Origin: Candidatus Lokiarchaeum ossiferum
Lineage (GTDB): Archaea > Asgardarchaeota > Lokiarchaeia > Sigyniarchaeales > Promethearchaeaceae
Direction of reading: 5' to 3'
Length of the DNA: 32,000 nucleotides
NCBI GenBank assembly: GCA_025839675.1
Contig: CP104013.1
Location: 4,860,001-4,892,000 of the forward strand
Of the stretch, positions 5,605 to 31,035 are shown in pieces. The notes beneath the pieces were generated by a model, which did no database searches, was not told where the DNA came from, and saw only the letters and a program-made list of their open reading frames with translations. A program made the position numbers and the translations under genes. How positions within the stretch are numbered: the stretch's first letter is position 1; every line of letters begins with the position of its first letter.

Positions 5605-5614
5605 TTTTCATTTT

Positions 5615-5621
5615 CCCCTCC
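5615..5621 (-). promoter_or_regulatory. Shine-Dalgarno-like sequence of the 1330-aa surface protein gene
   Basis: The minus strand reads GGAGGGG 10 nt upstream of GTG 5604, inside the 17-nt spacer after the permease stop. Confidence 0.5.
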
Positions 5622-8486: not shown

Positions 8487-8500
8487 TTTGCTTTCCTCAA

Positions 8501-9529
8501 TCAATCATCGAGATTTGATCTTTCCTTGGATATGTATAAAACACCGCTGTTGATTTTTCCTTTGATATCTTCCTTCTCAACTAATTCTGCCATTAGATCA
8601 TCAAAATGTAATGGGAGATTGCTGATAATATCTGGATTTATTTGTTCTCTAATTTTAGAGAATCTTATCTCATAATTATGGTCTTTAATAGACTCGCGAA
8701 CTGTTTTTAATATTTCAACTTCACATTTTTCCTTGTATTTTGCTTGTAAATCCAATCTCGCAGAGCGCATTTCTTCTGTCTCTTTTAATCCCGAAACTTC
8801 GAGTCCTTTAACTATTTTCCCATCTCTAATATGGACAATACGCGTGCAATATTCTGAAACTGCTGCATCATGGGTTGCAGCAATAAATGTGGCTCCTTTT
8901 CTATTTAAATCTCTTAATAAGTTAAGAATTTCAATTCCTGTTTTTGAATCTAAATCACCCGTAGGCTCGTCCAGCATAACAATGGACGGATCATTAGCAA
9001 AAGCACGGGCAATGGCAACTCTTTGTTGTTCTCCTCCTGATAACTCGGATGGTGTGTGGTGTGCCCGTTCATCTAACTTTACTAATTTTAAAAGTTCCAT
9101 TGCCTTGCGTTTACGTGCTCTTTTAGATAATGTACCTTGAAAATGTAATGGGATCATAACATTTTCCAATGCGCTCAAAAGGGGTAAGAGATTATAAAAT
9201 TGGAAAACATAACCGATCTTATCTCGTCGTAAATCCGCAAGTTGATTTTCATTCAATCGGCTCATGTCCTGTCCATCAAGATAGATTTTACCCCGAGTGG
9301 GATAATCTAAACCACCAATTAAGTTGAGGAGAGTTGTTTTTCCACATCCGCTAGGTCCCATTAGCCCGGTAAATTCTCCCGGTTTAATTTTTAAATCGAT
9401 TCCTCGAAGTGCAGGAACGGCAGTAGCCCCGAGAAGGTAAGTTTTATGCACTCCTTCTACTAAGATTTTATAAGGCGTATTGATGGTTGAAATATCATCA
9501 GTTTTACTAATTGGTTTTTTGATTACCAT
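8501..9529 (-). CDS. ABC transporter ATP-binding protein (MacB/LolD/FtsE-like) with a ~110-aa C-terminal extension
   Basis: Walker A GPSGCGKTT, ABC signature LSGGEQQRVAIARA, Walker B IVMLDEPTGDLD and H-loop AATHD. It lies directly upstream of the FtsX permease. Residues ~235-342 extend beyond the canonical NBD. Confidence 0.92.
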   Translation of the reverse strand: MVIKKPISKTDDISTINTPYKILVEGVHKTYLLGATAVPALRGIDLKIKPGEFTGLMGPSGCGKTTLLNLIGGLDYPTRGKIYLDGQDMSRLNENQLADLRRDKIGYVFQFYNLLPLLSALENVMIPLHFQGTLSKRARKRKAMELLKLVKLDERAHHTPSELSGGEQQRVAIARAFANDPSIVMLDEPTGDLDSKTGIEILNLLRDLNRKGATFIAATHDAAVSEYCTRIVHIRDGKIVKGLEVSGLKETEEMRSARLDLQAKYKEKCEVEILKTVRESIKDHNYEIRFSKIREQINPDIISNLPLHFDDLMAELVEKEDIKGKINSGVLYISKERSNLDD

Positions 9530-9869
9530 GGAGAGTCATCTTTTTTTTTATCAATGGATCAGATATATAGATTCAATCCTAAATGCATTATTTTATTTAA
9601 GACATCACTAAAAAATGACATTGATCGGTTTTTATTAAATGAAAAAAAGTTGATCTAGTTAAAAAACTTATTTCCTTCATTTTTTAAGAAAAAAAGGGGT
9701 GAATTTGTTATGCTTTTAACTTAAATAAAAAAGATAAATATTTTGCAGAATTATAAAATATTCGTTCTGTCGATAATCTTCTCTAAAATCTCAGAAATCT
9801 TCCGATTGGATTATTTGAGAAAAATTGATAAAAATAAAAATGATTTGGGAAAATTATGTTCTCTTTTCA

Positions 9870-11411
9870 TTAAATAAATTGCAGTACATCTTTTTCAATA
9901 AGTGAGAAACCTTGTGCATCTTCAGCCAAAATTGTTTCTAATAATTTCACCTTCAGTGATTTTATCTGCAATTGGCTTTCCATGCTAAGAGCATTTTCAT
10001 CAACTTGATTAAGTTTACTGTATATTCCTTTTGCCTCATTTAAATCAAAGGGAGTAATGTCTGACGTTATTTTCAAATACTTTGCAACAATGGATTTAAT
10101 GAGATCAACAGCATCAGGAATAAAATCCAAAAATTTCGTGGCATTGCCTGTTTTCATAAAACTCGCTAAATAAGGCTCATAATTCTGCATAAAATCTTCA
10201 AACATTATCGAAAAATCTTCCTTAACAAACTCCATATCCAAATCTGGGTGGGTGAAAATTGTTAAAGTTAGATTTTTTTTCGAGAGTGAAGACATTTTTA
10301 TATTCCCTCCTTGAACTCGAAAGCTAGATAGATCTTGAACATTTATTTCTTCAGCAAATTTAGACATTGCATTCAAAAACATTGGAATTAATTCTAAATC
10401 AAATTGGGGATTATCGGCTTTATTCAATGCGTCTCTCAAAGAACATTTCTTTGTTTCTGCAACAATCAACGTTTTTCCATTAGAATCACTGATCATAATG
10501 CCGTAAATTAATTTTTCTGGTTCAAATTTCTGGTCTTCACTCACTGGGGCTGCTTTTTTGCTAGCCAGATCCTTATTAGAGAGATCCAAGAATGATTTTA
10601 AGACTTGTTCGTAATATACCTCACCTTTTTCTGTTAAATAGACCAGGGTTTGTTTATCCATTTTTTTAGTTCTTAGAAAATTTGCTGTCTCATAAGAGCT
10701 AATTAAGGTTTGTAAAGTTGATTTTGAAGTTTCAAGATTCGATATCAGCCGTTCTAAACTTAAAACTTTTTGAGTTTTCAATGTATTGAAGAGATTAATA
10801 TTTAATTGAATAAGTTTTGTGTCCATTTCACCTTCATTATCAAGTCCCGATTTTCTGAAAACATCTACAAATGCATTGATTGTTGTGTAAAGATGTTCTG
10901 GCTTAATGGAAGTATAATATATGTTTAAATCTGTTTTGTAGTTCTTTTTTATTTCCTTTTTATAAGCTTCAATATGATCTTTAATTTTTAATAATTGAAT
11001 TTCATCAATTAAATCAATTTTATGGATAAGAAAGAAAATATTTGCTTGTTTGGATTGAACTGGTTGTAAAGCAATTGCTTTTCTTATATAATCAACAGTG
11101 ATTTTTGGAGCATGCCTTGAATCCAAGATATTTAAAATTATATCACTATCATTGAAAACATTTTTATCTTCAGAAAACCATCTTTCTTGTTCTTGACCTG
11201 CTAAGTCAAAAACACCTAAGTTTTGTAATAAATTATACGAATAGTTTTCAAATCCATAAGTTGGTTCAATAGGATTTTCTAACAACTTAAATAATGATTC
11301 TCCTTCAAATAACCATTTCCGGATAGTTGATTTTCCAACACCCGAAGGTCCAACAAATACAATTTTTTTTGACAGTATAGATCTCTTCCTTTTAATTGAA
11401 TGTAATAACAA
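9870..11411 (-). CDS. Rag/Gtr-like small GTPase with a central winged-helix-like segment and a C-terminal roadblock/LC7-like domain (513 aa)
   Basis: G1 GPSGVGKS (aa 21-28), G2 region EPTYG, G3 DLAGQE (aa 69-74). G4 is HKID rather than NKxD (aa 130-133, in IFFLIHKIDL). G5 region is YYTSIKPEHLY. HKxD and TSI..E.LY match my recollection of RagA (IFCLVHKMDL, FRTSIWDETLY). Residues ~216-270 (LSLERLISNLETSKSTLQTLISSYETANFLRTKKMDKQTLVYLTEKGEVYY) look like a wHTH. Residues ~300-400 show a beta-alpha-beta-beta-alpha roadblock-like pattern (LIYGIMISDSNGKTLIVAE...LTLTIFTHP). Confidence 0.72.
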   Translation of the reverse strand: MLLHSIKRKRSILSKKIVFVGPSGVGKSTIRKWLFEGESLFKLLENPIEPTYGFENYSYNLLQNLGVFDLAGQEQERWFSEDKNVFNDSDIILNILDSRHAPKITVDYIRKAIALQPVQSKQANIFFLIHKIDLIDEIQLLKIKDHIEAYKKEIKKNYKTDLNIYYTSIKPEHLYTTINAFVDVFRKSGLDNEGEMDTKLIQLNINLFNTLKTQKVLSLERLISNLETSKSTLQTLISSYETANFLRTKKMDKQTLVYLTEKGEVYYEQVLKSFLDLSNKDLASKKAAPVSEDQKFEPEKLIYGIMISDSNGKTLIVAETKKCSLRDALNKADNPQFDLELIPMFLNAMSKFAEEINVQDLSSFRVQGGNIKMSSLSKKNLTLTIFTHPDLDMEFVKEDFSIMFEDFMQNYEPYLASFMKTGNATKFLDFIPDAVDLIKSIVAKYLKITSDITPFDLNEAKGIYSKLNQVDENALSMESQLQIKSLKVKLLETILAEDAQGFSLIEKDVLQFI

Positions 11412-11412
11412 C

Positions 11413-11766
11413 TTATTGATTCTTTTTTTTCAAATCTGTAATTGAACTTTTTAAATCGGATATCCCATCACGATATTTTTGATTTAATCGTTTAAATTCT
11501 TGTTCAAGTTTGATTATCTCATTTAGTAGGGGGTTTTTAATAATTTCTGTTTTATATTTTGATATAACTTTTTTCAATTTATAATTTTGGTCTACATAAA
11601 TGATGGAACAAATTTCTTCGCTTGATAAATCTTTTTTGTGAATGTGAACTACTGGAAATGGTTTTTTTTTAAATTTTGGGTTGTTGGAGTGTAAAATCTT
11701 GTGAGTATGTTCTTTTTTACATAATTCACAAAAATATGTAATATTTATCTCTTTCTCAACAGCCAT
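11413..11766 (-). CDS. Hypothetical small protein: N-terminal Cys/His cluster plus C-terminal coiled coil
   Basis: 117-aa ORF whose stop lies 1 nt from the start of the Rag-like gene (likely co-translated). It contains CELCKKEHTHKILH (C-x2-C-x3-H-x-H-x3-H). The C-terminal heptad-like segment is IIKLEQEFKRLNQKYRDGISDLKSSITDLKKK. No family recognised. Confidence 0.5.
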   Translation of the reverse strand: MAVEKEINITYFCELCKKEHTHKILHSNNPKFKKKPFPVVHIHKKDLSSEEICSIIYVDQNYKLKKVISKYKTEIIKNPLLNEIIKLEQEFKRLNQKYRDGISDLKSSITDLKKKNQ

Positions 11767-14050: not shown

Positions 14051-15520
14051 ATGTCTAATCTTAATTCGAATGAAGTTTCCATTCCACCAGAAATTATTGA
14101 TACTTTTAAAAAAACGGGGTTAGGATATTCTTGGTTGATCAAAGGACAAGCGGGAGTAGGGAAAACAACCTTCGCTCTTAGTCTATTACACTTTTTTAAA
14201 AAATATGAGCCTATATATTTATCCACGCGTGTGGCTCCTGCGAGCATATATGCACAATTTCCTTTTTTGGAAGGCAGATTGCAGGATTTTAACATTTTGG
14301 ATGCAACAAGGACTTATATTCCTCCCGTAAATCAACCTGAGCGTATGAAAGATCATTTGAACAATACTCTTAGGTTTTCATCAGTTCCCGATTTCTTAAA
14401 AATAATATACGAAAAAGTGGCACAATATGAATCCCCCGTTATAGTAATTGATTCTTGGGATGCGATTGTTGGTCAAAGTAATGATGAAAGGAAAAATATT
14501 GAAACCTTATTAACTGAATACATCCGCAACACTAATGCAAAATTGATCTTTATTGCTGAATCTGATAGTATAAGCCTTTTGGATTTTATTGTTGATGGTA
14601 TTCTTACTCTCAAGGATGAATCCGTCGCGGGAAGAACCCTTCGAACAATCGAAATAAATAAAATTCGTGCTGTGGAACGCCGTCAAAAAGCGTATGCATA
14701 TACTTTATTCAATAATCAATTCCAATATATTTCTCTCTTTGAAAAGGATAAACAAATCCCAATAACACCTTTTGAAATAACAACGGATAAAAACGATTTA
14801 TTTTCAACAGGAAATGCACCTTTAGATGAGATTTATAATGGAGGTTTACGTCCAGGAACTTTTAATTTATTAGAAGTAGAATCAACCGTTCCAATATCAT
14901 CAATTTCATCGATCTTCATTGGCATGTTATGTCAATTTATTCAACAAGGAAGAGGTGCTATTGTACACACGACTGATGGGATTAATTCTGATTTAATTGA
15001 CAAGAAACGCCTATTTCTCTATTTACAAACAGATACCATTAGTAGAAACATGCGAATACTACAAACTCAAATCAGCGATAGAAAAGAGATTCGCCCTTAT
15101 ATTCGGTTGGTTGACGATGTTTCATACAATGATATCTTTTTTGATACATATTCGAAATTATCAAGTATTTCCAAATTTCAACCTGTATTTGCTGGAATTT
15201 CTTATGATTCCTTACAGTTTATGGTCGATTTTAATAAAGCAATGCGCGATTTCGAGAATCATTTAAAATTAATTAGGAATTCCAATGTGATTGAATTAGG
15301 TATCATTAATTCTACTTCCCCAGGGCAAGCTAAAGCGTCTCAAGATTTGGGAGCATTAACAACAAATTTATCATATATTGCTTCTACACATATAAAAGTG
15401 ATAGAAAGACACGGCTCCATATTTTTGTATGCGATTAAGCCAAGAAGCTCTTGTCTTTTTGCTATGAAGACAAATTATGATAAAGGGTTTCCTCAGATTG
15501 AATTGTTACCTGTTGTTTAA
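14051..15520 (+). CDS. KaiC/GvpD-like RecA-superfamily ATPase, tandem-domain, with a degenerate second nucleotide-binding domain
   Basis: Domain 1 has IPPEIIDTFKKTGLGYSWLIKGQAGVGKTTFALSLL (Walker A, aa 32-39) and a Walker B-like VIVIDSWD (aa 130-136). Domain 2 starts with the KaiC-type lead-in STGNAPLDEIYNGGLRPGTFNLL. Its P-loop position reads EVESTVPISS, with no GKT. Confidence 0.75.
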   Translation: MSNLNSNEVSIPPEIIDTFKKTGLGYSWLIKGQAGVGKTTFALSLLHFFKKYEPIYLSTRVAPASIYAQFPFLEGRLQDFNILDATRTYIPPVNQPERMKDHLNNTLRFSSVPDFLKIIYEKVAQYESPVIVIDSWDAIVGQSNDERKNIETLLTEYIRNTNAKLIFIAESDSISLLDFIVDGILTLKDESVAGRTLRTIEINKIRAVERRQKAYAYTLFNNQFQYISLFEKDKQIPITPFEITTDKNDLFSTGNAPLDEIYNGGLRPGTFNLLEVESTVPISSISSIFIGMLCQFIQQGRGAIVHTTDGINSDLIDKKRLFLYLQTDTISRNMRILQTQISDRKEIRPYIRLVDDVSYNDIFFDTYSKLSSISKFQPVFAGISYDSLQFMVDFNKAMRDFENHLKLIRNSNVIELGIINSTSPGQAKASQDLGALTTNLSYIASTHIKVIERHGSIFLYAIKPRSSCLFAMKTNYDKGFPQIELLPVV

Positions 15521-15523
15521 GAC

Positions 15524-15530
15524 GAGGTGA
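15524..15530 (+). promoter_or_regulatory. Shine-Dalgarno sequence of the Rab-like GTPase gene
   Basis: GAGGTGA lies 4 nt upstream of ATG 15535, in the 14-nt spacer after the KaiC-like gene. Confidence 0.6.
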
Positions 15531-15534
15531 GAAA

Positions 15535-16035
15535 ATGAATATACAAAGAAAAGTGTGCCTTCTTGGTTCTGATGGTGTTGGAAAAACTTCTATTATTGTC
15601 AGATATACTAAGGGAACTTTTTCAAATTCTTATCTAGTAACTCTAGGCGTTGACTTTTACGAAGTGAAATTTTCCAATCCAAAAACCTCTGATATGCTTT
15701 CAACCCAAATTTGGGATTTGGCATCACAGAAAAATTTTCAATTCATGAGAGCACAGTATCTTTCCTATGCAAATTATATTATTATTGTAGTCGATGCGAT
15801 GAGGCATGCTGATGAATATATTGTCCCATGGATTAACGATGTTCGGAAACATGCTGGTAAAGAAGTTCCTTATATAATAGTTTTAAACAAAGTTGATTTG
15901 ATAGATGCTGAGACATCTAAAAATTTGGTTTTAAGATTGAAAAATCAATTCAATGTTCCTATTTTTAATACTTCCGCTAAAACAGGGGAAAATATTCATG
16001 AAATCTTTGAATATGTCGCTGAATGTCTTTGGTAA
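15535..16035 (+). CDS. Rab/Ras-like small GTPase (166 aa) with a non-canonical switch II (DLASQ)
   Basis: G1 GSDGVGKT, a Rab-like switch I TLGVDF, G3 WDLASQK (canonical is WDTAGQE), G4 NKVD and G5 TSAKTG. The strong SD GAGGTGA (15524-15530) lies 4 nt before the ATG and 14 nt after the KaiC-like stop. Confidence 0.88.
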   Translation: MNIQRKVCLLGSDGVGKTSIIVRYTKGTFSNSYLVTLGVDFYEVKFSNPKTSDMLSTQIWDLASQKNFQFMRAQYLSYANYIIIVVDAMRHADEYIVPWINDVRKHAGKEVPYIIVLNKVDLIDAETSKNLVLRLKNQFNVPIFNTSAKTGENIHEIFEYVAECLW

Positions 16036-16301
16036 CGAATCTTTTTTAAATGCAATATTTTTGTTAAGATATTTCTAATTAAAATTCTTATCAAAAAATC
16101 ACTCTTTTTCTTAAAATTTAAGTATATAATCAATTGGTTCTAAATTCTTTATGAAAGTGGTTTAAAGGAAAAATGGTAGACTGTTGATTATCATTTTTAA
16201 TCATCTATTTAAATTGAAATTTAAAGTCTCCCTTCAATATTTAAAAACCCATCCTTAAATAATAGTTCATCTCCAAAAAAAATAATTTGTATCAGGATAG
16301 A

Positions 16302-17639
16302 ATGGAAATGGTAATTGGATTAGTATTAACTCATTGGGACACCCAGTTAGGTCCTTTAATAATGGCAAGATATCCAAATAATTTTCAAGTATCTAAAGAT
16401 GAAATCAACAAAATATTAATGACACATTCAATTTCTAAAGAGATGACAAATGAAATAGTCGAAATTCGTTTGAAAGAAAAAATTTTTCTCAGTTATTGTC
16501 CAAAAAAGCAAATTCCAGTCAATGGATATTCTATGATGATTATTGTTCTCCATTTAAATGAAGAATTATTGTTTGATGGAATAAAAAATCAATTAAATGA
16601 AATTGGTGAAAATTTATTCAATCGTTCTGGTAATGAGCAAATTAAAGAATTTCACCAGTATGCATCCAAATTTTTTCAAAAAAAATCATCACGAAAAATA
16701 TTATTTATAGGATCTAGCGCAGTAGGTAAAACTTCAATTAAAAAACTATTTTTTGAGGGAATACCTTCTGAATCTCTTTTGGATTTGCCCCTTGAACCAA
16801 CTTATGGATTAGTACAATTTAATTATGATTGGCTAGATTTGGATCTTGGTGTTGCAGATCTGGCAGGTCAGGAAATGGACCATTTTTTAAACGAATCATT
16901 CGAATCGGAGATTGATCCATTTGATTCTGTTGATGCAATTCTCTACATCTTCGATTCAACTTATTGGGATACAAATTCTCGTGAAATCGTACAACATATA
17001 CAGAAGATTCTAGACATAAATACAAGTAGAGATCTAAAATCCCAGTTTTTTGTTTTTTGTCACAAACTGGATTTAATTCCAACTTATGATCAACAATCCT
17101 TCAAGAATGAAATAAAATATACCTTGCCAGCATCGGTTCAGTCTAATCTCTTTTTTACAAGCATTAAATCTGACATGCTCCATCAACTAATTAGATCAAT
17201 GCAAGTAGTAATTGGTACCCTCTCACCACAAACCAATTATCTCGAAGAAATATTATTTGAGACTATTTCAGAAAAAAGGAATACTGCAGTAATTATTTTA
17301 AATGAAAAAAGAATTTTACTAAGTGCTTCGACTGAAGATTTTAAAATAATTAACTATTCTCACATCTTTTCATTCATTTCATCAATGAATTTGCTTCTCG
17401 ATGATTTCAAAAGTGAATTCACTCAATTACAACTTAAAGGAAACCGTTTTAATTTGCATTTTTCCTCGATAGAATGGTTGTCAGAGGGTGAATGTATCAT
17501 TTTAATTAGTGAATGCTTATCTTTTAAGGAATTAAGTCTACTAAAAGAGAGTATTCAATATAGTTTAATATATTTAGAAACTTCCTACGAAAAATCTTCA
17601 GATAATCTAAACATAGATCAAAAAAATTCATCCAAATAA
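16302..17639 (+). CDS. Three-domain protein: folliculin-like longin domain, Rag/Gtr-like GTPase and a Rag-CTD-like roadblock domain
   Basis: The track starts at TTG 16287. I prefer ATG 16302 (MEMVIGLVLTHWDTQLGP), by analogy with the N-terminus of the 163-aa paralogous domain at 30544. GTPase motifs: G1 GSSAVGKT (16710-16733), EPTYG, DLAGQE (16857-), HKLD (17061-17072, in FVFCHKLDLI) and FFTSIKSDMLH. The C-terminal ~115 aa alternate helix and strand in the same order as the RagA C-terminal roadblock domain (LEEILFETISEKRNTAVIILNEKRILLSAS...FTQLQLKGNRFNLHFSSI...ECIILISEC...). Confidence 0.72.
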   Translation: MEMVIGLVLTHWDTQLGPLIMARYPNNFQVSKDEINKILMTHSISKEMTNEIVEIRLKEKIFLSYCPKKQIPVNGYSMMIIVLHLNEELLFDGIKNQLNEIGENLFNRSGNEQIKEFHQYASKFFQKKSSRKILFIGSSAVGKTSIKKLFFEGIPSESLLDLPLEPTYGLVQFNYDWLDLDLGVADLAGQEMDHFLNESFESEIDPFDSVDAILYIFDSTYWDTNSREIVQHIQKILDINTSRDLKSQFFVFCHKLDLIPTYDQQSFKNEIKYTLPASVQSNLFFTSIKSDMLHQLIRSMQVVIGTLSPQTNYLEEILFETISEKRNTAVIILNEKRILLSASTEDFKIINYSHIFSFISSMNLLLDDFKSEFTQLQLKGNRFNLHFSSIEWLSEGECIILISECLSFKELSLLKESIQYSLIYLETSYEKSSDNLNIDQKNSSK

Positions 17640-17651
17640 AGGTAAATCCAA

Positions 17652-18314
17652 ATGAGCATTAATAAAAACAATTCAAAATTAAAAAAAAATTCCGATATTG
17701 CAGTTCCCAGAGAAGTTAAAAATAAGGTAACTTTGCGAATTGAAAATGTCGTAGCTAGCGTAAAAGTGGGCACTTTTATAGATCTCAATAAACTATTAGA
17801 AAAATATAAAGATATTGAAAAGAAAGAAAATTTTCCAGGATTAGTCGTAAAAATGAAAAATCCTAAGGCAACCATATTGATTTTCTCTTCTGGTAAGATG
17901 GTGGCCACAGGTGTTCGACTTGTCAAACATCTTCCCATAGTTGTGGAAAAAGTCGTCAAAAAGATGGAAAATGCAGGGATTGAAATTGAGATGGAACCAG
18001 AGGTAAAAATTGAAAATATCGTTGTGCGTGGAGATTTCCATCAAACTATAAATCTCGATTTAACCTCCTTATCTTTAACTCGGGCAATTTATGAACCTGA
18101 AGTTTTTCCTGGATTAATTTATAAAATACCTGATCCAAAAATATGCTTCCTCATTTTTAGTTCAGGTCGAATTATCTGTACAGGTGCGAGTGATGAAAAT
18201 GTTATCCGAAGTTCAGTAAAAAAACTTGCTTTAGATTTAAAACGGCAAGGTGTACTCGGAAATACTAAAAAAAAAGTAGGTCAATTAGATCTTGATTTAC
18301 TGGACTTGTTCTAA
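17652..18314 (+). CDS. tbp: TATA-box binding protein (TBP) with a ~30-aa basic N-terminal extension
   Basis: Two TBP repeats: IENVVASVKVGTFIDLNKL...NFPGLVVKMKNPKATILIFSSGKMVATG and IENIVVRGDFHQTINLDLTSL...YEPEVFPGLIYKIPDPKICFLIFSSGRIICTGA. Acidic/hydrophobic tail LDLDLLDLF. The start is 12 nt after the stop of the upstream Rag-like gene. Confidence 0.93.
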   Translation: MSINKNNSKLKKNSDIAVPREVKNKVTLRIENVVASVKVGTFIDLNKLLEKYKDIEKKENFPGLVVKMKNPKATILIFSSGKMVATGVRLVKHLPIVVEKVVKKMENAGIEIEMEPEVKIENIVVRGDFHQTINLDLTSLSLTRAIYEPEVFPGLIYKIPDPKICFLIFSSGRIICTGASDENVIRSSVKKLALDLKRQGVLGNTKKKVGQLDLDLLDLF

Positions 18315-25343: not shown

Positions 25344-25904
25344 TTATTCCGTTTGCAAACCAAATTTCTTCAAACGATTAATTATGATTTTTTCTGCTTC
25401 TTCTATTTTTAATCGATCTTCGGCAGAAATCTGTGTGTTTCCCCCATAAAAAGTATCGACTAATGTGTGGAAAATTGTTTCATTAAGATCATTTTTGTTA
25501 TATCTATGTATTCTTTTGGATGTTCCCTCAAAAGTATCCATACTGCGGGAAGCAATTACATCTATTCCTGTGCCTAAGATGTTTTTTATAAGAACATCTC
25601 CCATTTTGATAGGTGCTTGGCAAACTACATCATTTACAACTTTGATGCTTCGTAATAGATGTTGTTTTGGAATAGGTTCCACACTTCTTACTGGAATTAC
25701 TGGGAGTGTCGCACCTTCTATCCGCATAGTAGTAATCAGCATGCGAACTGGATTAGTATATTCACTTTCTCCATATGTTAATCCACGCGGGCATTGATTT
25801 CCCTTAATGTGCAACTCGCCCTCTTTATCACGCCAAACTGTTAAACGACATGAATTAGGACATATTACACATATGATTTCGCGTTCATTTATTCGTTCTT
25901 CCAT
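25344..25904 (-). CDS. DUF1667-family Cys-rich protein, third component of the GlpA-like oxidoreductase trio
   Basis: N-terminal CVICPNSCRLTV...GNQCPRG. It sits 2 nt downstream of the FAD/NAD oxidoreductase gene, the typical three-gene arrangement. Confidence 0.75.
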   Translation of the reverse strand: MEERINEREIICVICPNSCRLTVWRDKEGELHIKGNQCPRGLTYGESEYTNPVRMLITTMRIEGATLPVIPVRSVEPIPKQHLLRSIKVVNDVVCQAPIKMGDVLIKNILGTGIDVIASRSMDTFEGTSKRIHRYNKNDLNETIFHTLVDTFYGGNTQISAEDRLKIEEAEKIIINRLKKFGLQTE

Positions 25905-25906
25905 TT

Positions 25907-27235
25907 TTAGTCACCCTCCAACATCGTTTTTTCAATGATATTTATTGTCTGCTTCTTCTCTGTAACATTCACTGTGATTTCATCTCCAACATCTTCTGGG
26001 TTTAGCTTAGCATTGATATTGATCATTTCTGATGGTAGAACAAATTTGTGTCTCCTTGAATAAATAACCTTCCCCTTTGAAATTATTTGGGTACGTATAT
26101 TCGATCTTGGATTTTTTACTCGATAAGAAAATTTAATGACTTTTTCGGATGTGAGATCATCAATCCGTTCTGGTACGGTATAGCCTACATTTGTCCCCGG
26201 CTTAATCGTAACTGATCTACATGTTTCAAGAGTGGGTATTAGTAACTCCTTTTTCGCGTATAGGGCTGCATTTTTTCCTGCTTGTTCCGCTTCTTCTGTT
26301 ACCCAATCAACTAAGTCGTGAACTTGTAATACATTTCCACATGCAAAAATTCCCGGTATTGTGGTTTGAAGATACTCATTTACATTAGGACCTCCATTAT
26401 TTGCAATATCACATCCTGCTGTCGCGGAAAGTTCATTTTCGGGGATTAGTCCTACACTAAAGAGAATTGTATCACAATCGAAATGCTTTTCCGTCCCAGG
26501 AATTGGGCGCCATTTTTCATCAATTTCTGCAATTGTTGCACCTTCTACGCGTTCTTTTCCCCGAATATCAATGATTGTATGCCGTAAATATAAGGGTATT
26601 CCATAATCATCAAGGCATTGGACTTGATTTCGTTTCAAACCGCTTGGATAGGGAAGCACTTCGGATACTGCGAGCACTTTCATCCCTTCTAATATACATC
26701 TCCGTGCCATGATCATACCTATATCTCCAGATCCCAAGATTAATACTCGGTGTCCTGGAATATATCCTTCCATATTGATAAAACGCTGGGCTTGACCTGC
26801 TGGAAAAATACCTGCTGGACGGGAACCTGGGATGTTAATGGCGCCTCTGGTGCGCTCTCTACATCCCATGGCCAAAATTATTGCTTTTGTTTTGACATGG
26901 AATAATCCTGTTTTAGAATTAATAACTGATACAATTTTATTTGGTGTTAAGTTAATAACCATTGATTTCAGCATAATTTTTACATTCGATTGACCAATCA
27001 TGTCAATAAATCGCTGAGCATATTCAGGTCCTGTTAATTCTTCTTTGAAATGTTTTAATCCAAAGCCATTATGGATACATTGTTGAAGAATTCCTCCCAA
27101 TTCATTATCACGCTCTAAAACTAGTACAGAACATCCTTCTTGGTCTGCTTTCAAAGCTGCAGCAAGACCTGCAGGACCTCCTCCAATAACTACAACATCA
27201 TATTGAATTTCTTTAATCTCATTATTTGCGCTCAT
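25907..27235 (-). CDS. FAD/NAD(P)-dependent pyridine nucleotide-disulfide-type oxidoreductase
   Basis: Dinucleotide fold DVVVIGGGPAGLAAAL...LERDNELGGIL, a second fold at RVLILGSGDIGMIMA, and GIFACGNV near the C-terminal FAD contact. Confidence 0.85.
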   Translation of the reverse strand: MSANNEIKEIQYDVVVIGGGPAGLAAALKADQEGCSVLVLERDNELGGILQQCIHNGFGLKHFKEELTGPEYAQRFIDMIGQSNVKIMLKSMVINLTPNKIVSVINSKTGLFHVKTKAIILAMGCRERTRGAINIPGSRPAGIFPAGQAQRFINMEGYIPGHRVLILGSGDIGMIMARRCILEGMKVLAVSEVLPYPSGLKRNQVQCLDDYGIPLYLRHTIIDIRGKERVEGATIAEIDEKWRPIPGTEKHFDCDTILFSVGLIPENELSATAGCDIANNGGPNVNEYLQTTIPGIFACGNVLQVHDLVDWVTEEAEQAGKNAALYAKKELLIPTLETCRSVTIKPGTNVGYTVPERIDDLTSEKVIKFSYRVKNPRSNIRTQIISKGKVIYSRRHKFVLPSEMININAKLNPEDVGDEITVNVTEKKQTINIIEKTMLEGD

Positions 27236-27249
27236 AATTATTCTTCCTC

Positions 27250-28722
27250 CTATAGATTTTCTCCTTGATATATTTCCGAATTCAAGTTCTTAGAACGTTT
27301 AAATACAACTTGTGAATCTCCGCCGGTTTTAGTGATCTGCTCATAGATCATTTCACATTCCCGTGATATAATCTTCATGATTTTTGCTTGGCAGAATCCT
27401 CCTTGACATCTCCCCATCCCTGGACGTAATCGCCGTTTGACCATATCTGTATTTGTACACGGGATAAGTGTATGGCAAGATTTGACTATTTCTGCTTCTG
27501 TAACTAATTCACAGCGACAAATCATATTTCCCCATTGTGGATTTTCTTCGATTTTTTTGGCTAATTGAGCTTCCGATAAATCAGCATAGCGAACCTGTTT
27601 TTTACGGGTAGCAATATAATTGTCTTTTTCTACTAAAACATATTTACATTCATTTTTAATTATCGTCTCTACTTTCTCTGCAATCGCTAAACATGAAGAT
27701 AATCCTGGTGAATCAATTCCTGCCGCATGGATGAAGTTAGTAACTGAAGAAAGTTCAACGATGAAATCGTGACGTAATGTGCTTGCACGAATGCCTGCAA
27801 AATTGGTGATGTGTTTTCGGAATGGAAGATCTACCAATTTCATACCTCCTGTTAAAATTTCATTTAATCCTTCGGTAGTAGTCTGATTTCCTTCCACATC
27901 ATTAATTTCATCGGCATTTGGTCCTACATAAAAATTTCCATGGAGAGTTGGACCTACAACAATTCCTTTAGAAACCACTGTTGGACATGGAAAAAGAATT
28001 TTTTTAAGTGGAAGGGAATTTTTATCGAACATAATATATTCTCCTCTGCGAGGAATGATGTTGAAACTTTCATCTCCGACCATTTTTGCGATTTTATCAG
28101 AATATATCCCTGCAGCATTAATAATGGTTCTAGCTGTTATTTTTCTTCCATCAGTCGAATGAATACTAAATTCATCTGCTTCACGTTTGATGAATCCAAC
28201 ATTATATTCTAAAAATAGTTTTACTCCATTGGCTACACTATTTTCTGCTAAGGCGATAGTAAGTTCCCATGGAACAATAATTCCAGCTGTTGGAAAATGT
28301 AGTACTGCTATAACTTCATTTTTCAGATTAGGTTCTAATTCCTTGATTTTGATAGGATCGTCAATAAATTCGACTTCAACATTACGATTTATACTTTTAG
28401 TAAGTTCTCCTTGTAATGTCTTAACTTCATTTTGATTCGTTGCGCAAAATAATGCCCCTGTGCGTTTATAATCTACGCCAAGCTGAGGACAGATTTCATC
28501 AAATAATTCATTTCCACGAAGACTTAAGGATTCTTTCAAAGATCCTTTGGCAGTAAAATATCCTTGATGGATAATACCACTATTTGCTTTGCTTGTCCCC
28601 ATAGCAACATCTGCGTCTTTTTCAATTAAGGCTATTTTTAAATTATACTTGGCCAAACGTTGAGCGATTGAAGTGCCCACGCATCCAGCACCAATGATTG
28701 CAATATCATAATCCATTTTCAT
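27250..28722 (-). CDS. FAD-dependent oxidoreductase of the GlpA / glycerol-3-phosphate dehydrogenase-like (DAO) family with a C-terminal BFD-like [2Fe-2S] domain
   Basis: DIAIIGAGCVGTSIAQRL...IEKDADVAMGTSKANSGIIH (FAD fold). The C-terminal ICRCELVTEAEIV...RRLRPGMGRCQGGFC is a BFD-like Cys4 motif. It is the first gene of the trio. Confidence 0.8.
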   Translation of the reverse strand: MKMDYDIAIIGAGCVGTSIAQRLAKYNLKIALIEKDADVAMGTSKANSGIIHQGYFTAKGSLKESLSLRGNELFDEICPQLGVDYKRTGALFCATNQNEVKTLQGELTKSINRNVEVEFIDDPIKIKELEPNLKNEVIAVLHFPTAGIIVPWELTIALAENSVANGVKLFLEYNVGFIKREADEFSIHSTDGRKITARTIINAAGIYSDKIAKMVGDESFNIIPRRGEYIMFDKNSLPLKKILFPCPTVVSKGIVVGPTLHGNFYVGPNADEINDVEGNQTTTEGLNEILTGGMKLVDLPFRKHITNFAGIRASTLRHDFIVELSSVTNFIHAAGIDSPGLSSCLAIAEKVETIIKNECKYVLVEKDNYIATRKKQVRYADLSEAQLAKKIEENPQWGNMICRCELVTEAEIVKSCHTLIPCTNTDMVKRRLRPGMGRCQGGFCQAKIMKIISRECEMIYEQITKTGGDSQVVFKRSKNLNSEIYQGENL

Positions 28723-28924: not shown

Positions 28925-30283
28925 ATGGAAACCAAACTTACCAAGGAAGAACTAATTGAGAAGTCCAAAATCCCTTCAAAAAATGCGATGAAAATGCATC
29001 CATTTTATAAAGGGAAATTACAAGTAATGCCTCGTTGCTCCGTACGCGATTTTCAAGATTTTGGGATCTGGTATAGTCCAGGTGTAGCAGCACCTTGTAA
29101 TGATATTTATCAGAATCCAGAAACCGTTTACAAACATACAAGTAAGTGGAATTATGTGGCGGTGGTTAGTGATGGGACTCGCGTGTTAGGTTTAGGAAAT
29201 ATTGGGCCAGAAGCGGGATTGCCTGTAATGGAAGGGAAGGCCTTGTTGTTCAAATATTTGGGTGGTGTTGATGCATTTCCCTTATGTGTTGGGCCTAATA
29301 TGGATGCTGAACAAATAATCCAATTAGTGAAATGGATTCAACCAACCTTTGGGGGAATAAATTTGGAAGATATTCAAAAACCTAAATGTTTCAAGGTATT
29401 AGATGCCCTTCGGAAAGATCCTGATATTCATATTCCGGTTTGGCATGACGATCAGCAAGGAACTGCGTGTGTTACTGTTGCAGGAATGATTAATGCTTTG
29501 AAAGTAGTAGGCAAAAAGCGAAAGGATGTAAAAATTGTGTTTAATGGTGTGGGAGCAAGTAATTTTGCTATACAACGATTGCTAGGAACTGCCGGATTTA
29601 ATACAAGAAGTGCTCTATACGTTGATTCTCGAGGTATTCTTTATAAAGAACGGGAAGATCTTCTTTCTCCTGACAATTATAAATATGAAATTGCGCAAAG
29701 AAGCAATCGTGAACAAATTCAAGGTGATTGTGGAACTGCTCTTGAAGGAGCGGATGTTCTGATCTCATTATCCAGATCTGGTCCCGGAGTTATCCAAAAA
29801 GAATGGATTTCAAAAATGGCAAATGATGCTGTGGTATTCACTTGTGCAAATCCTGTTCCTGAAATATTTCCATGGGATTCAAAAGAGGCGGGTGCACGAA
29901 TTGTGGCGACTGGAAGATCTGATTTTCCAAATCAAGTTAACAATTCAGTTGGATTCCCTGGAATATTTCGTGGTACTTTAGATGTTAGAGCAACAACAAT
30001 TACTGATGAGATGTGTATTGCAGCCGCTGAAGAACTTGCCAAATTTGCTGCTCACAAGGGTATTAGTGAGAATTATATCATTCCTACTATGGAAGATATG
30101 CAAGTTTTTATTGATGAGGCAGTTGCTGTTGGTCAAAAAGCAATTGAACAGAATGTTGCTCGAATTCGACTTTCTGCGGATGAAGCAAGGGATATTGCCA
30201 CCAAACTCATTACTGATTCCCACGATCAAACAAAATTGTTAATGAAAGAAGGATTTATTCCAGAATATCCAAATTATCTTTAA
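28925..30283 (+). CDS. NAD(P)-dependent malic enzyme (short prokaryotic type)
   Basis: VVSDGTRVLGLGNIGPEAGLPVMEGKALLFKYLGGVDAFPL, FGGINLEDI, HDDQQGTA, FNGVGASNFA and NNSVGFPGIFRG are canonical malic-enzyme motifs. Confidence 0.92.
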   Translation: METKLTKEELIEKSKIPSKNAMKMHPFYKGKLQVMPRCSVRDFQDFGIWYSPGVAAPCNDIYQNPETVYKHTSKWNYVAVVSDGTRVLGLGNIGPEAGLPVMEGKALLFKYLGGVDAFPLCVGPNMDAEQIIQLVKWIQPTFGGINLEDIQKPKCFKVLDALRKDPDIHIPVWHDDQQGTACVTVAGMINALKVVGKKRKDVKIVFNGVGASNFAIQRLLGTAGFNTRSALYVDSRGILYKEREDLLSPDNYKYEIAQRSNREQIQGDCGTALEGADVLISLSRSGPGVIQKEWISKMANDAVVFTCANPVPEIFPWDSKEAGARIVATGRSDFPNQVNNSVGFPGIFRGTLDVRATTITDEMCIAAAEELAKFAAHKGISENYIIPTMEDMQVFIDEAVAVGQKAIEQNVARIRLSADEARDIATKLITDSHDQTKLLMKEGFIPEYPNYL

Positions 30284-30297
30284 TTCTTTTGGTGTAA

Positions 30298-30311
30298 TTT
30301 TTTTTTTTTTT
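30298..30311 (+). terminator. Oligo-T tract (T14), a candidate archaeal intrinsic terminator after the malic enzyme gene
   Basis: An uninterrupted run of 14 T starts 15 nt after the stop codon. Archaeal RNAP is known to terminate at oligo-T tracts. Confidence 0.55.
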
Positions 30312-30543
30312 AAATTTAATTATTTGTTAAAATAATTCTAATTACAAAAATGGAAAAAAAAACGTTCGATTAAATGGAAGATTTGGTCTTTTAACGAATG
30401 TCATTTGATAGCTATTTATAACCTTAGGTTAAAACTATTCCAATTGCTCACCCATAAATGAGATTTCTTCCACATCTATTTTAAAGAATTAATATGTATT
30501 CTTTTGAATGAATTCATCATCCGAGGGATAGGAACACGAATCT

Positions 30544-31035
30544 ATGTCTTCACATGACATCACTGATATGGAAATTGGTATTGCTTTAAGCCATTATCAT
30601 CATAAACTTGGGCCCCAATTTGTTGGAATTAGTTTCAACTTTACTTCATTTGATTCCATCAGTCAGTATAATATTCTTCAAGATTCAATATCCTCACGAT
30701 CGAATGACCTTGCCTTATTTGTGAACAATAAGGAAGGAACCCCCTATACTATCCGAATTAAGAAAATTAAAATATTGGATCCCTTAGCTCGGGGCGGGGT
30801 ACAAAGATATGCTGTAGTACTATTAATTCCAAGTGATTTACAAAAATTTGATTTTAATATCGAGGAAATTGCAGAAGATTTAATAGATAAATTGTCCCAA
30901 GGTGCCAACATTCATCAATCTTTAAATGCATGGCATACATTATTGAATGATCAATTTGGGGCAATCAAACCTGATGAAGAGCTTAAAATTGTACGACGTA
31001 TTAAACCCAAAACTCAAACTTTAGACTTATTTTAA
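30544..31035 (+). CDS. Stand-alone folliculin/Lst7-like longin-domain protein (163 aa)
   Basis: The N-terminus MEIGIALSHYHHKLGPQF parallels the N-terminus of the 16302 gene (MVIGLVLTHWDTQLGPLI) and, from memory, human FLCN (AIVALCHFCELHGPRTLF). ILDPLARGGVQRYAVVLLI parallels FLCN IKDSLARGFQRWYSIITIM. R83 is encoded at 30790-30792. The strand/helix order is longin-like. The assignment is by eye, not by profile search. Confidence 0.55.
   Translation: MSSHDITDMEIGIALSHYHHKLGPQFVGISFNFTSFDSISQYNILQDSISSRSNDLALFVNNKEGTPYTIRIKKIKILDPLARGGVQRYAVVLLIPSDLQKFDFNIEEIAEDLIDKLSQGANIHQSLNAWHTLLNDQFGAIKPDEELKIVRRIKPKTQTLDLF

Follow-up and report, generated by a model that had tools for sequence, protein, structure and literature searches.

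A single-domain longin protein of Candidatus Lokiarchaeum ossiferum with likeness to folliculin and NPRL2 and a putative arginine finger

We analyzed a stretch of 32,000 nucleotides from contig CP104013.1 of Candidatus Lokiarchaeum ossiferum (hereafter the window) and found in it a small protein, NEF87_004181, that probably belongs to the FLCN/NPRL2/SMCR8 homology class of longin GAPs. Its longin fold, its GP motif, an arginine between strands 4 and 5, and class members as its closest structures are the marks of this class. The explanation that we favor as a whole, and hold to be slightly better than an even bet, is a single-domain longin GAP with R83 as its finger that acts on a Rag/Gtr-like GTPase. 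Taken separately, it is evenly balanced whether the protein is an arginine-finger GAP, and a substrate among the Gtr1/RagA-type GTPases is possible if somewhat doubtful.

The open reading frame and the codon for R83 (30790-30792) lie where a preliminary description of this DNA had placed them. An exact-sequence look-up returned the product as UYP47896.1 of Candidatus Lokiarchaeum ossiferum, a "hypothetical protein", and members of its family carry no folliculin or SMCR8-longin label in NCBI or UniProt. The gene and its parts are as follows:

30544..31035, plus strand: longin gene NEF87_004181, ATG start, 163 aa, stop included (ORF list and translation)
30284..30543, plus strand: AT-rich intergenic region upstream of the longin gene (read from the sequence)
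30577..30633, plus strand: hairpin of strand 1, loop, and strand 2, residues 12-30 (DSSP of AF2 models, invariant columns, hhalign)
30655..30702, plus strand: helix 1 (residues 38-50) plus what follows up to S53; contains the conserved QDSISSRS
30778..30795, plus strand: D79-P-L-A82-R83-G84 loop between strands 4 and 5, with the putative arginine finger R83
30964..31032, plus strand: C-terminal tail (residues 141-163) predicted to be disordered, with LDLF at its end (pLDDT <50)

In the intergenic region a T-run directly follows the stop codon of malic enzyme. TATA-like elements (TTTAAA/TTAATA) ~45-65 bp 5' of the ATG are the presumptive promoter of the longin gene. Another T-run follows the stop of the longin gene itself, which looks monocistronic. 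The protein had been described as stand-alone, and it does consist of a longin domain only, with no Pfam match to a DENN domain or to Folliculin_C. In full-length folliculin and SMCR8, by contrast, a DENN domain follows the longin. Its C-terminal tail is variable, with a hydrophobic-acidic C-terminus retained within the Lokiarchaeum/Harpocratesius clade (alignment columns 201-217).

Structure prediction gave a confident longin fold of two strands, a helix, three strands, and two helices (DSSP of the AF2 model: E12-19, E23-30, H38-50, E55-61, E67-78, E86-96, H106-118, H123-137), with pLDDT 80 for the full protein and pLDDT 90.4 and pTM 0.84 for the core. R83 sits between strands E67-78 and E86-96, a topology that would leave it exposed and spatially next to the GP motif. 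When the PDB was searched with Foldseek, the best five matches were FLCN or NPRL2 for either model (E 2.5e-5 to 6e-4). The FLCN chains among the best matches were 8dhb_J, which came first (E 2.5e-5), 6ulg_L, and 6nzd_H, while NPRL2 (9o5a_H, 9o5d_D) supplied the second and third matches and the best eukaryotic superposition (TM ~0.5, rmsd 4.3 A). Yeast Npr2 (8adl_S, 9h4q_T) took ranks 5 and 7 with the full-length model, and ranks 8 and 9 with the core. Of these chains, 6ulg_L, 6nzd_H, and 8adl_S were identified by sequence, and those of 8dhb, 9o5a, 9o5d, and 9h4q at the level of the entry, the chain letter being assigned from chain length. TM-scores were modest (0.35-0.52), and the highest, 0.60, was to another Lokiarchaeal longin, 8yqg_B. 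No SMCR8, C9orf72, MglB, or roadblock structure appeared in the top 50. The expectation that folliculin would rank above generic roadblock/MglB folds was thus borne out, with NPRL2 alongside it, and because NPRL2 is about equally close, "longin-GAP class" is a safer label than "folliculin orthologue".

The sequence signal for folliculin is weak but specific. The sole Pfam match of NEF87_004181 was Folliculin (PF11704; 15 bits, E 0.022, residues 53-121), which falls below the gathering threshold of 23.3 bits; 28 of the 31 proteins in the family show this sub-threshold match, with E 3e-4 at best. Neither NPR2 (PF06218, at E <= 10) nor Robl_LC7 matched the protein in Pfam, so that the profile search pointed to folliculin and to no other family. 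When we aligned the family profile with a 20-sequence metazoan FLCN alignment using hhalign, the probability was 54-68% with R83 paired with R164, and it rose to 71% over 101 columns after the FLCN insertion (residues 29-112) was removed. The probability was down to 30% with a broader family alignment, 8% in global mode, and 2.8% against the lone human FLCN sequence; a single human sequence is uninformative here, and a folliculin alignment is therefore required. The hhalign score of 37.7 nevertheless exceeded all of 60 column-shuffled controls (13.7 +/- 3.2, maximum 24.3), and the match therefore exceeds chance. Searches of PDB sequences with phmmer (protein) and hmmsearch (family profile) returned noise alone, namely Src SH3 and cadherin at E ~1. 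The folliculin/Lst7 assignment of the preliminary description accordingly holds at the level of the FLCN/NPRL2 longin class and is less safe at that of orthology, given the sub-threshold Pfam match, the hhalign probabilities of 30-71%, and the equal closeness of NPRL2.

The residues that pair are those expected of the class. NEF87_004181 carries LSHYHHKLGP (residues 15-24) and DPLARGGVQRYAVVLLI (79-95), and human FLCN carries LCHFCELHGP (7-16) and DSLARGFQRWYSIITIM (160-176, with R164) in PDB chains 6ulg_L and 6nzd_H, just as the preliminary description had given them. In the hhalign alignments, H17, Y18, G23, and P24 paired with FLCN H9, F10, G15, and P16, and D79, A82, R83, and G84 with D160, A163, R164, and G165; the conserved Q123, S128, and S130 of FLCN are matched by Q46, S51, and S53. 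The spacing of the two segments had been called identical, which is true inside each segment, where the alignment is gapless, and untrue of the distance from GP to arginine (59 residues vs 148 in FLCN), which differs because FLCN has an insertion of ~85 residues after strand 2. In FLCN, Arg164 is the catalytic finger and the loop of residues 10-16 touches RagC, with F10D eliminating GAP activity (PMC9473554). The hairpin of residues 12-30 in NEF87_004181 appears by alignment to be the counterpart of this loop; it holds the invariant Y18, K21, G23, and P24, with the GP motif at 30610-30615.

Conservation within the family follows the same residues. Across 25 orthologues, with identity down to 37%, Y18, K21, G23, P24, D79, A82, R83, and G84 do not vary, and the GP and ARG motifs both occur in all full-length orthologues. 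The check on R83 conservation that had been proposed earlier thus came out in favor of the preliminary description. Both motifs are present in 70 of the 88 family sequences, the other 18 being fragments or members of two diverged paralogue groups. G23-P24 is kept even in distant paralogues, and the arginine is lost from four of them (P0076-P0078, P0080), so the conservation of the GP hairpin runs deeper. NEF87_001449 is a paralogue without the arginine, a degenerate tandem longin copy (P0019) occurs in other genomes, and the neighborhood of a further paralogue, NEF87_003783, was uninformative. The family is small and, in the searches made here, restricted to Lokiarchaeia, where both cultured species, P. 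syntrophicum and L. ossiferum, encode it. When 1.84 billion representatives were searched exhaustively with the HMM, 20 hits came back, and apart from P0079, a repeat protein (subtilase with PKD domains) that we rejected as spurious, they were small proteins of Lokiarchaeia; no eukaryotic FLCN, NPRL2, or SMCR8 and no other Asgard longins were found by this profile search at E <= 1e-3. A further word-indexed search using the family alignment gained only close Lokiarchaeial relatives, and a related-locus search with a family alignment gave 11 loci, all from Promethearchaeota.

These patterns could also belong to a non-catalytic longin platform of the scaffold, GEF, or effector type, in which DxxARG and GP are conserved for folding or dimerization, a reading that we regard as rather improbable and yet the strongest of the alternatives. 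Longin and roadblock dimers are mostly platforms or GEFs (PMC10933270). The highest TM-score belongs to 8yqg_B, a Lokiarchaeal longin dimer without known activity, the longins of DENN-family GEFs (6ekk_B, 8p0v_M) are among the Foldseek matches, and the GP hairpin outlasts the arginine in the paralogues noted above. However, no full-length orthologue has lost the arginine, which lies in the same DxxARG context as FLCN R164, and the top structures are the arginine-bearing FLCN and NPRL2, with the non-catalytic FNIP2 (6ulg_N) ranking just 23rd-25th. The GP motif, which closes the loop that leads into strand 2, is, moreover, specific to GAP longins and reported missing from non-GAP longins (PMC12290439).

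If the protein is a GAP, its target has to be sought among the small GTPases. The window encodes two Rag-like GTPases, one of them fused to a longin domain, as the preliminary description had it, and the longin gene lies between the two metabolic genes that it had named:

9870..11411, minus strand: Gtr1/RagA-type GTPase with a C-terminal extension, 513 aa (Pfam PF04670, E 5e-14)
16287..17639, plus strand: fusion of a longin domain, a Gtr1-RagA GTPase, and a C-terminal domain, 450 aa (PF04670, E 1.5e-18, residues 137-351)
28925-30283: malic enzyme, upstream of the longin gene
from 31262, running off the window: Ldh_2, downstream of the longin gene

The central-carbon setting had been offered as a functional clue. 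The synteny of malic enzyme and longin gene is conserved, yet the two are separate transcription units, and we do not count it as evidence of longin function. The 513-aa GTPase is an orthologue (50% identity; BLASTP, MK-D1) of the gene that immediately follows the longin gene (DSAG12_01735) in Promethearchaeum syntrophicum, which makes it a candidate substrate. The fusion is a candidate substrate or dimer partner; its N-terminal hairpin, VIGLVLTHWDTQLGP, has the GP motif with no arginine at the finger position, and its N-terminal longin-like segment matched the family profile over 22 columns in hhalign (E 1.5e-4).

Both Rag-like genes of the window lie 13-19 kb from the longin gene and share no operon with it. 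Elsewhere the linkage is closer: a Gtr1/RagA-type gene is directly downstream or one gene off in three Promethearchaeum genomes (L001, L010, L018), five other genomes (L002, L003, L015, L016, L020) have a longin-Rag fusion gene at a distance of 1-8 kb, and ~8 of 13 informative genomes have Rag-like genes within 10 kb. The linkage is missing in several clades (L004, L009, L011, L012), and it may be inherited synteny among related genomes.

An arginine-finger GAP for a non-Rag small GTPase, whether Arf-related or Rab/Ras-like, would account for the same motifs, in the manner of SMCR8-C9orf72, which acts on Arf. We think this unlikely, the two closest kinds of structure being Rag GAPs and not SMCR8, and the only immediate gene adjacency being to the Gtr1/RagA type in the three Promethearchaeum genomes. 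On the other side, in L004 and L009 the GTPase genes ~5-7 kb from the longin gene are of the Ras/Roc type and not Rag-like, and a Ras-like GTPase gene (15535-16035) adjoins the longin-Rag fusion in this window. Arf-like and Gtr1/RagA GTPases are both enriched in L. ossiferum (PMC9834061), and the choice between an ArfR and a Rag partner for Asgard longins is left open by PMC12290439. A third alternative, that the folliculin likeness is convergent or fortuitous and the protein a PAS/LOV-like or profilin-like sensor unconnected to GTPase control, is very improbable: many LOV/PAS domains are in the Foldseek list (E 1e-3 to 2e-2) and the curated families are all below threshold, but the LOV/PAS superpositions are poor (rmsd 10-16 A, TM 0.3-0.4), the order of secondary structures is that of a longin, and three separate conserved motifs match FLCN in order and far above shuffled controls. 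We rejected the PAS/LOV and roadblock/MglB readings on topology and poor superposition.

A single-domain GAP of the kind that we favor could work as follows. The longin protein would pair with a second longin domain, for which a further molecule of the same protein, NEF87_001449, and the longin at the N-terminus of the Rag-like fusion are candidates. The dimer would dock onto the nucleotide pocket of a Rag/Gtr-like, or possibly Arf-like, small GTPase through the Y18...G23-P24 loop, and R83 of the strand 4-strand 5 loop would then be inserted as an arginine finger and accelerate GTP hydrolysis. All three elements of this scheme are inferred, namely that the protein dimerizes, that it is a GAP, and which GTPase it acts on.

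A more specific version, which we offer as speculation with a low probability, is that the Lokiarchaeia-specific longin is the catalytic half of a two-longin GAP, the non-catalytic half being an arginine-less paralogue or tandem copy or, in cis, the GP-only longin of the fusion. Were this so, the division of labor seen in FLCN-FNIP, NPRL2-NPRL3, and SMCR8-C9orf72 and the regulation of Rag would already have existed in Lokiarchaeia, the system could be reconstituted from two cultured organisms, and the conserved place of the gene beside malic enzyme could point to a connection with nutrients.

The longin-GAP/Rag switch is the core of eukaryotic amino-acid sensing upstream of mTORC1, and a pre-eukaryotic form of it has so far been proposed from genome surveys only. 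If a Rag-like GTPase of archaea were shown to be stimulated by the protein through R83, this would be the first biochemical evidence of such a form. The family is a practical entry point because the protein is a tiny single domain (163 aa) with all diagnostic residues, has two cultured hosts, and is encoded beside a candidate substrate in P. syntrophicum.

Among known systems, FLCN and Lst7 are the catalytic subunits of the GAP for RagC/D (Gtr2), and NPRL2/Npr2 is the arginine-finger subunit of GATOR1/SEACIT, the GAP for RagA/B and Gtr1. SMCR8 is the other catalytic member of the class in eukaryotes. Such eukaryotic longin GAPs are heterodimers with a non-catalytic longin (FNIP/Lst4, NPRL3, C9orf72); we identified no FNIP/Lst4-like partner for NEF87_004181. 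With FLCN the protein shares the longin fold, the first Foldseek match (8dhb_J), the sole Pfam family, and the aligned GP and DxxARG residues, whereas the ~85 residues that FLCN inserts after strand 2, Cys/His motif included, are missing, as is the C-terminal DENN domain. Lst7 likewise has no DENN domain. The cellular setting also differs from that of FLCN, as L. ossiferum has neither a lysosome nor mTORC1. NPRL2, too, has a GP hairpin (TLGP) and an arginine in its strand 4-strand 5 loop, which we take to be the finger R78. The context of the arginine is YSRNA in NPRL2 but the FLCN-like DxxARG in NEF87_004181, which also lacks the C-terminal domains of NPRL2. The likeness to NPRL2 is structural only.

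MglB and other Roadblock/LC7 proteins of bacteria and archaea follow the same overall superfamily plan as NEF87_004181, with a small dimeric platform of the alpha/beta type controlling a small GTPase. Roadblock domains start with an N-terminal helix, whereas our model opens with two strands, and MglB is not known to have an arginine finger. The Lokiarchaeota Roadblock-Longin protein of PDB 8yqg is of the same archaeal class and of similar size (TM 0.60) but has no sequence similarity detectable in a profile search of PDB sequences.

The closest relatives in kind are other Asgard longins, and the impression given by the preliminary description that such a protein was new did not survive. Liu et al. 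(2020/21) reported FLCN-like and many NPRL2-like longins (asCOGs) in Asgard archaea, and the L. ossiferum genome paper found "NPRL2-like longin domain" proteins to be enriched in this organism (PMC9834061). Our literature search found no paper naming the locus tags or PDB entry 8yqg. The Asgard "Folliculin/SMCR8 longin domain-containing" proteins described in 2025 have, by description, the same GP and arginine-finger motifs and were hypothesized to be GAPs for Rag or Arf-related GTPases, with Heimdallarchaeia and 15 database models highlighted (PMC12290439). This class of Asgard protein, already described computationally, gains with NEF87_004181 one family from Lokiarchaeia, together with paralogues that have no finger arginine.

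The longin protein NEF87_004181 is encoded by an open reading frame of 163 codons with an ATG start (30544-31035, + strand), and an exact-sequence look-up matched it to UYP47896.1 of Candidatus Lokiarchaeum ossiferum B-35, annotated as 'hypothetical protein'. Counting from the translation places the putative arginine finger, R83, within L81-A82-R83-G84 and its codon at 30790-30792, so both the frame listed in our ORF search and this residue lie where the preliminary description had put them. The neighbors it had named were likewise all present in the window:

28925-30283: malic enzyme, upstream of the longin gene
from 31262, running off the window: Ldh_2, downstream of the longin gene
9870-11411, - strand: Gtr1/RagA-type GTPase
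16287-17639, + strand: Gtr1/RagA-type GTPase, longin-fused

The longin gene looks monocistronic, because one T-run comes after the malic-enzyme stop and another after its own stop, and the 260-bp spacer on its 5' side is AT-rich with TATA-like elements. In nearly every related locus, malic enzyme has upstream of it a conserved cluster that lies here at 25344-28722 (- strand) and encodes an FAD oxidoreductase (DAO type, with a BFD-like [2Fe-2S] domain) together with Pyr_redox_2 and DUF1667 proteins. The longin protein and a TBP-domain protein (17652-18314) both end in a hydrophobic-acidic LDLF tail behind a disordered stretch (LDLF at 31021-31032; LDLDLLDLF at 18285-18311). Within the longin family, the Lokiarchaeum/Harpocratesius clade keeps variants of this tail (LDLF, LNLL, LDMF, IDLL) and Promethearchaeum does not; the tail could represent a short docking motif or be due to chance.

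A word-indexed search returned 55 relatives, and a second search using their alignment returned 67. All were unnamed proteins of 120-216 aa from Promethearchaeota/Lokiarchaeia, among them DSAG12_01735 of Promethearchaeum syntrophicum MK-D1. When 1.84 billion cluster representatives were searched exhaustively with an HMM, only 20 proteins reached E <= 1e-3, none of them eukaryotic, and 185,579 species genomes scanned by pattern yielded 11 loci, in Promethearchaeota throughout. The family is thus small and lineage-restricted.

AlphaFold2 with the family alignment modeled the full protein at pLDDT 80 (core near 90; residues 141-163 disordered) and residues 9-141 alone at pLDDT 90.4 and pTM 0.84. 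The modeled protein has a longin fold, with two strands, a helix, three strands and two helices in that order, which differs from the order in roadblock domains. In the model, G23-P24 closes the loop ahead of strand 2 and R83 lies in the loop between strands 4 and 5; this topology would bring both loops to the same edge of the antiparallel longin sheet.

We compared the model with the PDB using Foldseek. The best match of the full model was 8dhb_J from the active FLCN GAP complex (E 2.5e-5), followed by 9o5a_H and 9o5d_D (GATOR1), 6ulg_L, 9h4q_T, 6nzd_H and 8adl_S, and then by the Lokiarchaeal longin 8yqg_B. For the trimmed model (residues 9-141), the first five matches were again FLCN/NPRL2-type chains, with 8yqg_B sixth. 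PDB sequence searches identified 6ulg_L and 6nzd_H as folliculin and 8adl_S as Npr2, and found folliculin in 8dhb, Npr2 in 9h4q and NPRL2 in 9o5a, 9o5d, 7t3b and 9v0j; 8dhb_J, 9o5a_H, 9o5d_D and 9h4q_T were assigned by chain length. The best matches are FLCN, NPRL2 and Npr2 chains, and therefore the subunits that carry the arginine finger in each of the two Rag GAPs. FNIP2 (6ulg_N) ranked 23rd-25th, and the DENN longins DENND1A and DENND10 were also lower. SNARE, TRAPP, adaptor, SRP-receptor, Mon1-Ccz1 and roadblock/MglB structures were absent from the top 50, as were SMCR8 and C9orf72; LOV/PAS domains were listed with poor superposition. At about 0.5 to NPRL2/FLCN and 0.60 to 8yqg_B, the TM-scores were modest, and the ranking was driven by the combined 3Di and amino-acid score, not by a large TM gap.

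Sequence comparisons also pointed to folliculin. The human strings that the preliminary description had quoted are accurate against PDB chains 6ulg_L and 6nzd_H, where ALCHFCELHGPR is FLCN residues 6-17 and KDSLARGFQRWYSIITIM is the segment containing R164. Each segment aligns without gaps. Its 'identical spacing', if taken as the distance between the motifs, does not hold for human FLCN, because that distance is 59 residues here and 148 in FLCN, which has a long insertion after strand 2. The single Pfam match of NEF87_004181 was Folliculin (PF11704; E 0.022, 15 bits, under the 23.3-bit threshold). This family was matched by 28 of 31 members searched (best E 3e-4), among which no other longin family recurred. 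Aligned by hhalign to 20 metazoan and fungal folliculins, the family profile matched from strand 3 to helix 2 with R83 on R164 (probability 54-68%, E 5e-5 to 1e-4; probability 30% with a broader family alignment). Removal of FLCN residues 29-112 extended the alignment to 101 columns (probability 71%), pairing H17/Y18 with FLCN H9/F10, G23/P24 with G15/P16, Q46/S51/S53 with Q123/S128/S130 and D79/A82/R83/G84 with D160/A163/R164/G165. Every one of these positions is strictly or almost strictly conserved in one family or the other, and most of them in both. The hhalign score was 37.7, against 13.7 +/- 3.2 (maximum 24.3) in 60 column shuffles.

The matched residues have known functions in FLCN. 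Arg164 acts as the catalytic finger and sits beside BeF3 in RagC, loop 10-16 touches RagC and determines specificity, and F10D abolishes GAP activity (PMC9473554). The GP motif is reported to be specific to the GAP longins FLCN, NPRL2, SMCR8 and C9orf72 (PMC12290439). Across 25 orthologs, with identity down to 37%, the invariant columns include E10, G12, Y18, K21, G23, P24, D47, S48, D79, A82, R83, G84, P96 and W130.

Both KxGP and ARG were present in 70 of 88 family sequences, and the other 18 were fragments, a tandem-duplicate type (P0019/P0020, with GS and SPKG in the motif positions) or diverged paralogs (P0076-P0078, P0080) that keep KLGP and have lost the arginine. L. ossiferum encodes three family members; besides NEF87_004181 these are two distant paralogs outside the window, NEF87_003783 (P0071; locus L024, 8001-8531), which keeps GP and ARG, and NEF87_001449 (P0078), which has KLGP but no finger arginine, its loop reading YDYRYQGD. 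The arginine-less P0076, P0077 and P0080 are from other Lokiarchaeia. The tandem duplication, seen in GCA_030592305.1 and relatives, lies between malic enzyme and Ldh_2 (locus L005, 10001-10594 and 10983-11465; also L007 and L008). Its downstream copy, P0013, keeps KLGP and ARG, and P0019, the copy upstream of it (197 aa, with P0020 resembling it), reads ELGS and SPKG, having lost both diagnostic motifs together; the two would fit a catalytic/non-catalytic pair.

Rag-like genes lie within 10 kb of the longin gene in about 8 of 13 informative genomes. In MK-D1, a 496-aa Gtr1/RagA-type GTPase gene is directly downstream of the longin ortholog, followed by genes for an ABC ATPase, an FtsX permease and a 1324-aa TRAP_beta-like protein; the longin-GTPase arrangement recurs in two further Promethearchaeum genomes, one with an intervening gene. 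The window ortholog of this GTPase (9870-11411, 50% identity) keeps these partners but lies 19 kb from the longin gene on the opposite strand. Lokiarchaeum- and Harpocratesius-type genomes have the order malic enzyme, longin, (UbiA), Ldh_2, TBP and two unknown genes, after which the longin-Rag fusion, the Ras-like GTPase and the GvpD/KaiC-like ATPase form a convergent block at 5-8 kb from the longin gene. In one MAG (L016), a second longin copy is 1.2 kb from a longin-Rag fusion, and other clades (L004, L009, L011 and L012) have no Rag-like neighbor. This linkage is suggestive only, because the genomes are related and the synteny may be inherited. GTPase genes of MK-D1 are generally outside operons with longin or roadblock genes (Tran et al.).

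Two conserved blocks in the window contain the Rag-like genes:

14051-17639, + strand: GvpD/KaiC-like P-loop ATPase (489 aa), Ras/Roc-like small GTPase (166 aa) and longin/Gtr1-RagA/C-terminal-domain fusion (450 aa)
1612-11411, - strand, in transcription order: Rag-like GTPase with a long C-terminal extension (513 aa), ABC ATPase (342 aa), FtsX-type permease (960 aa) and giant protein (1330 aa)

The first, with gaps of 14 bp and 251 bp, has the same gene order in L002, L003 and L020. The second is colinear with MK-D1 (L001) and L010 and couples a Rag-like GTPase to a MacB/LolCDE-like transporter; the MK-D1 ortholog of its giant protein has a weak TRAP_beta match, and a 117-aa ORF (11413-11766) is just upstream of its GTPase gene. 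Malic enzyme, longin and Rag-like GTPase genes are contiguous in Promethearchaeum, and 9870-30283 of the window is rearranged relative to it and to L002/L003. The GvpD-Ras-Rag block is inverted and separated from the malic-longin pair by about 10 kb (18.3-28.9 kb) that includes the DAO/Pyr_redox/DUF1667 cluster and a gene for a 557-aa coiled-coil protein.

The preliminary reading of a folliculin/Lst7-type longin held for the class and the conserved arginine but not, as yet, for function or novelty. NEF87_004181 was correctly identified, and proteins of its kind had been described computationally before, the idea being present in three publications. FLCN-architecture proteins in Heimdallarchaeia, many 'NPRL2-like longin' families in Asgard archaea and Rag GTPases fused to longin domains have been reported (Liu et al., bioRxiv 10.1101/2020.10.19.343400), and 'NPRL2-like longin domain' proteins are listed as enriched in the L. 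ossiferum genome paper (PMC9834061). Fifteen Asgard longins were reported to retain both the GP motif and the arginine finger, arranged in the same way, and were suggested as possible GAPs for Rag or Arf-related GTPases (PMC12290439, Traffic 2025). Our literature search found no publication naming NEF87_004181 or its MK-D1 ortholog, and none that tested an Asgard longin GAP biochemically. Our analysis adds the restriction of this family to Lokiarchaeia, the conserved aromatic residue equivalent to FLCN Phe10, the arginine-less paralogs and, in Promethearchaeum, the position of the longin gene directly beside a Rag-like gene. The protein also lends itself to testing, as it can be studied in two cultured Asgard archaea.

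NEF87_004181 most likely belongs to the longin-GAP class, as a minimal protein that resembles Lst7 in having only a longin domain. We propose that it would dimerize via this domain and bind a Rag/Gtr-like GTPase through the Y18...GP loop, and that R83 would then be delivered as the arginine finger. Our comparisons show the fold, the likeness to the class and the matching residues, and from these we infer the dimer, the catalysis and the type of substrate. The arginine is lacking in NEF87_001449, in the degenerate tandem copy P0019 beside P0013 and in the GP-only longin fused to a Rag-like GTPase. We hypothesize that these relatives might recall the non-catalytic partners in the pairs FLCN-FNIP, NPRL2-NPRL3 and SMCR8-C9orf72.
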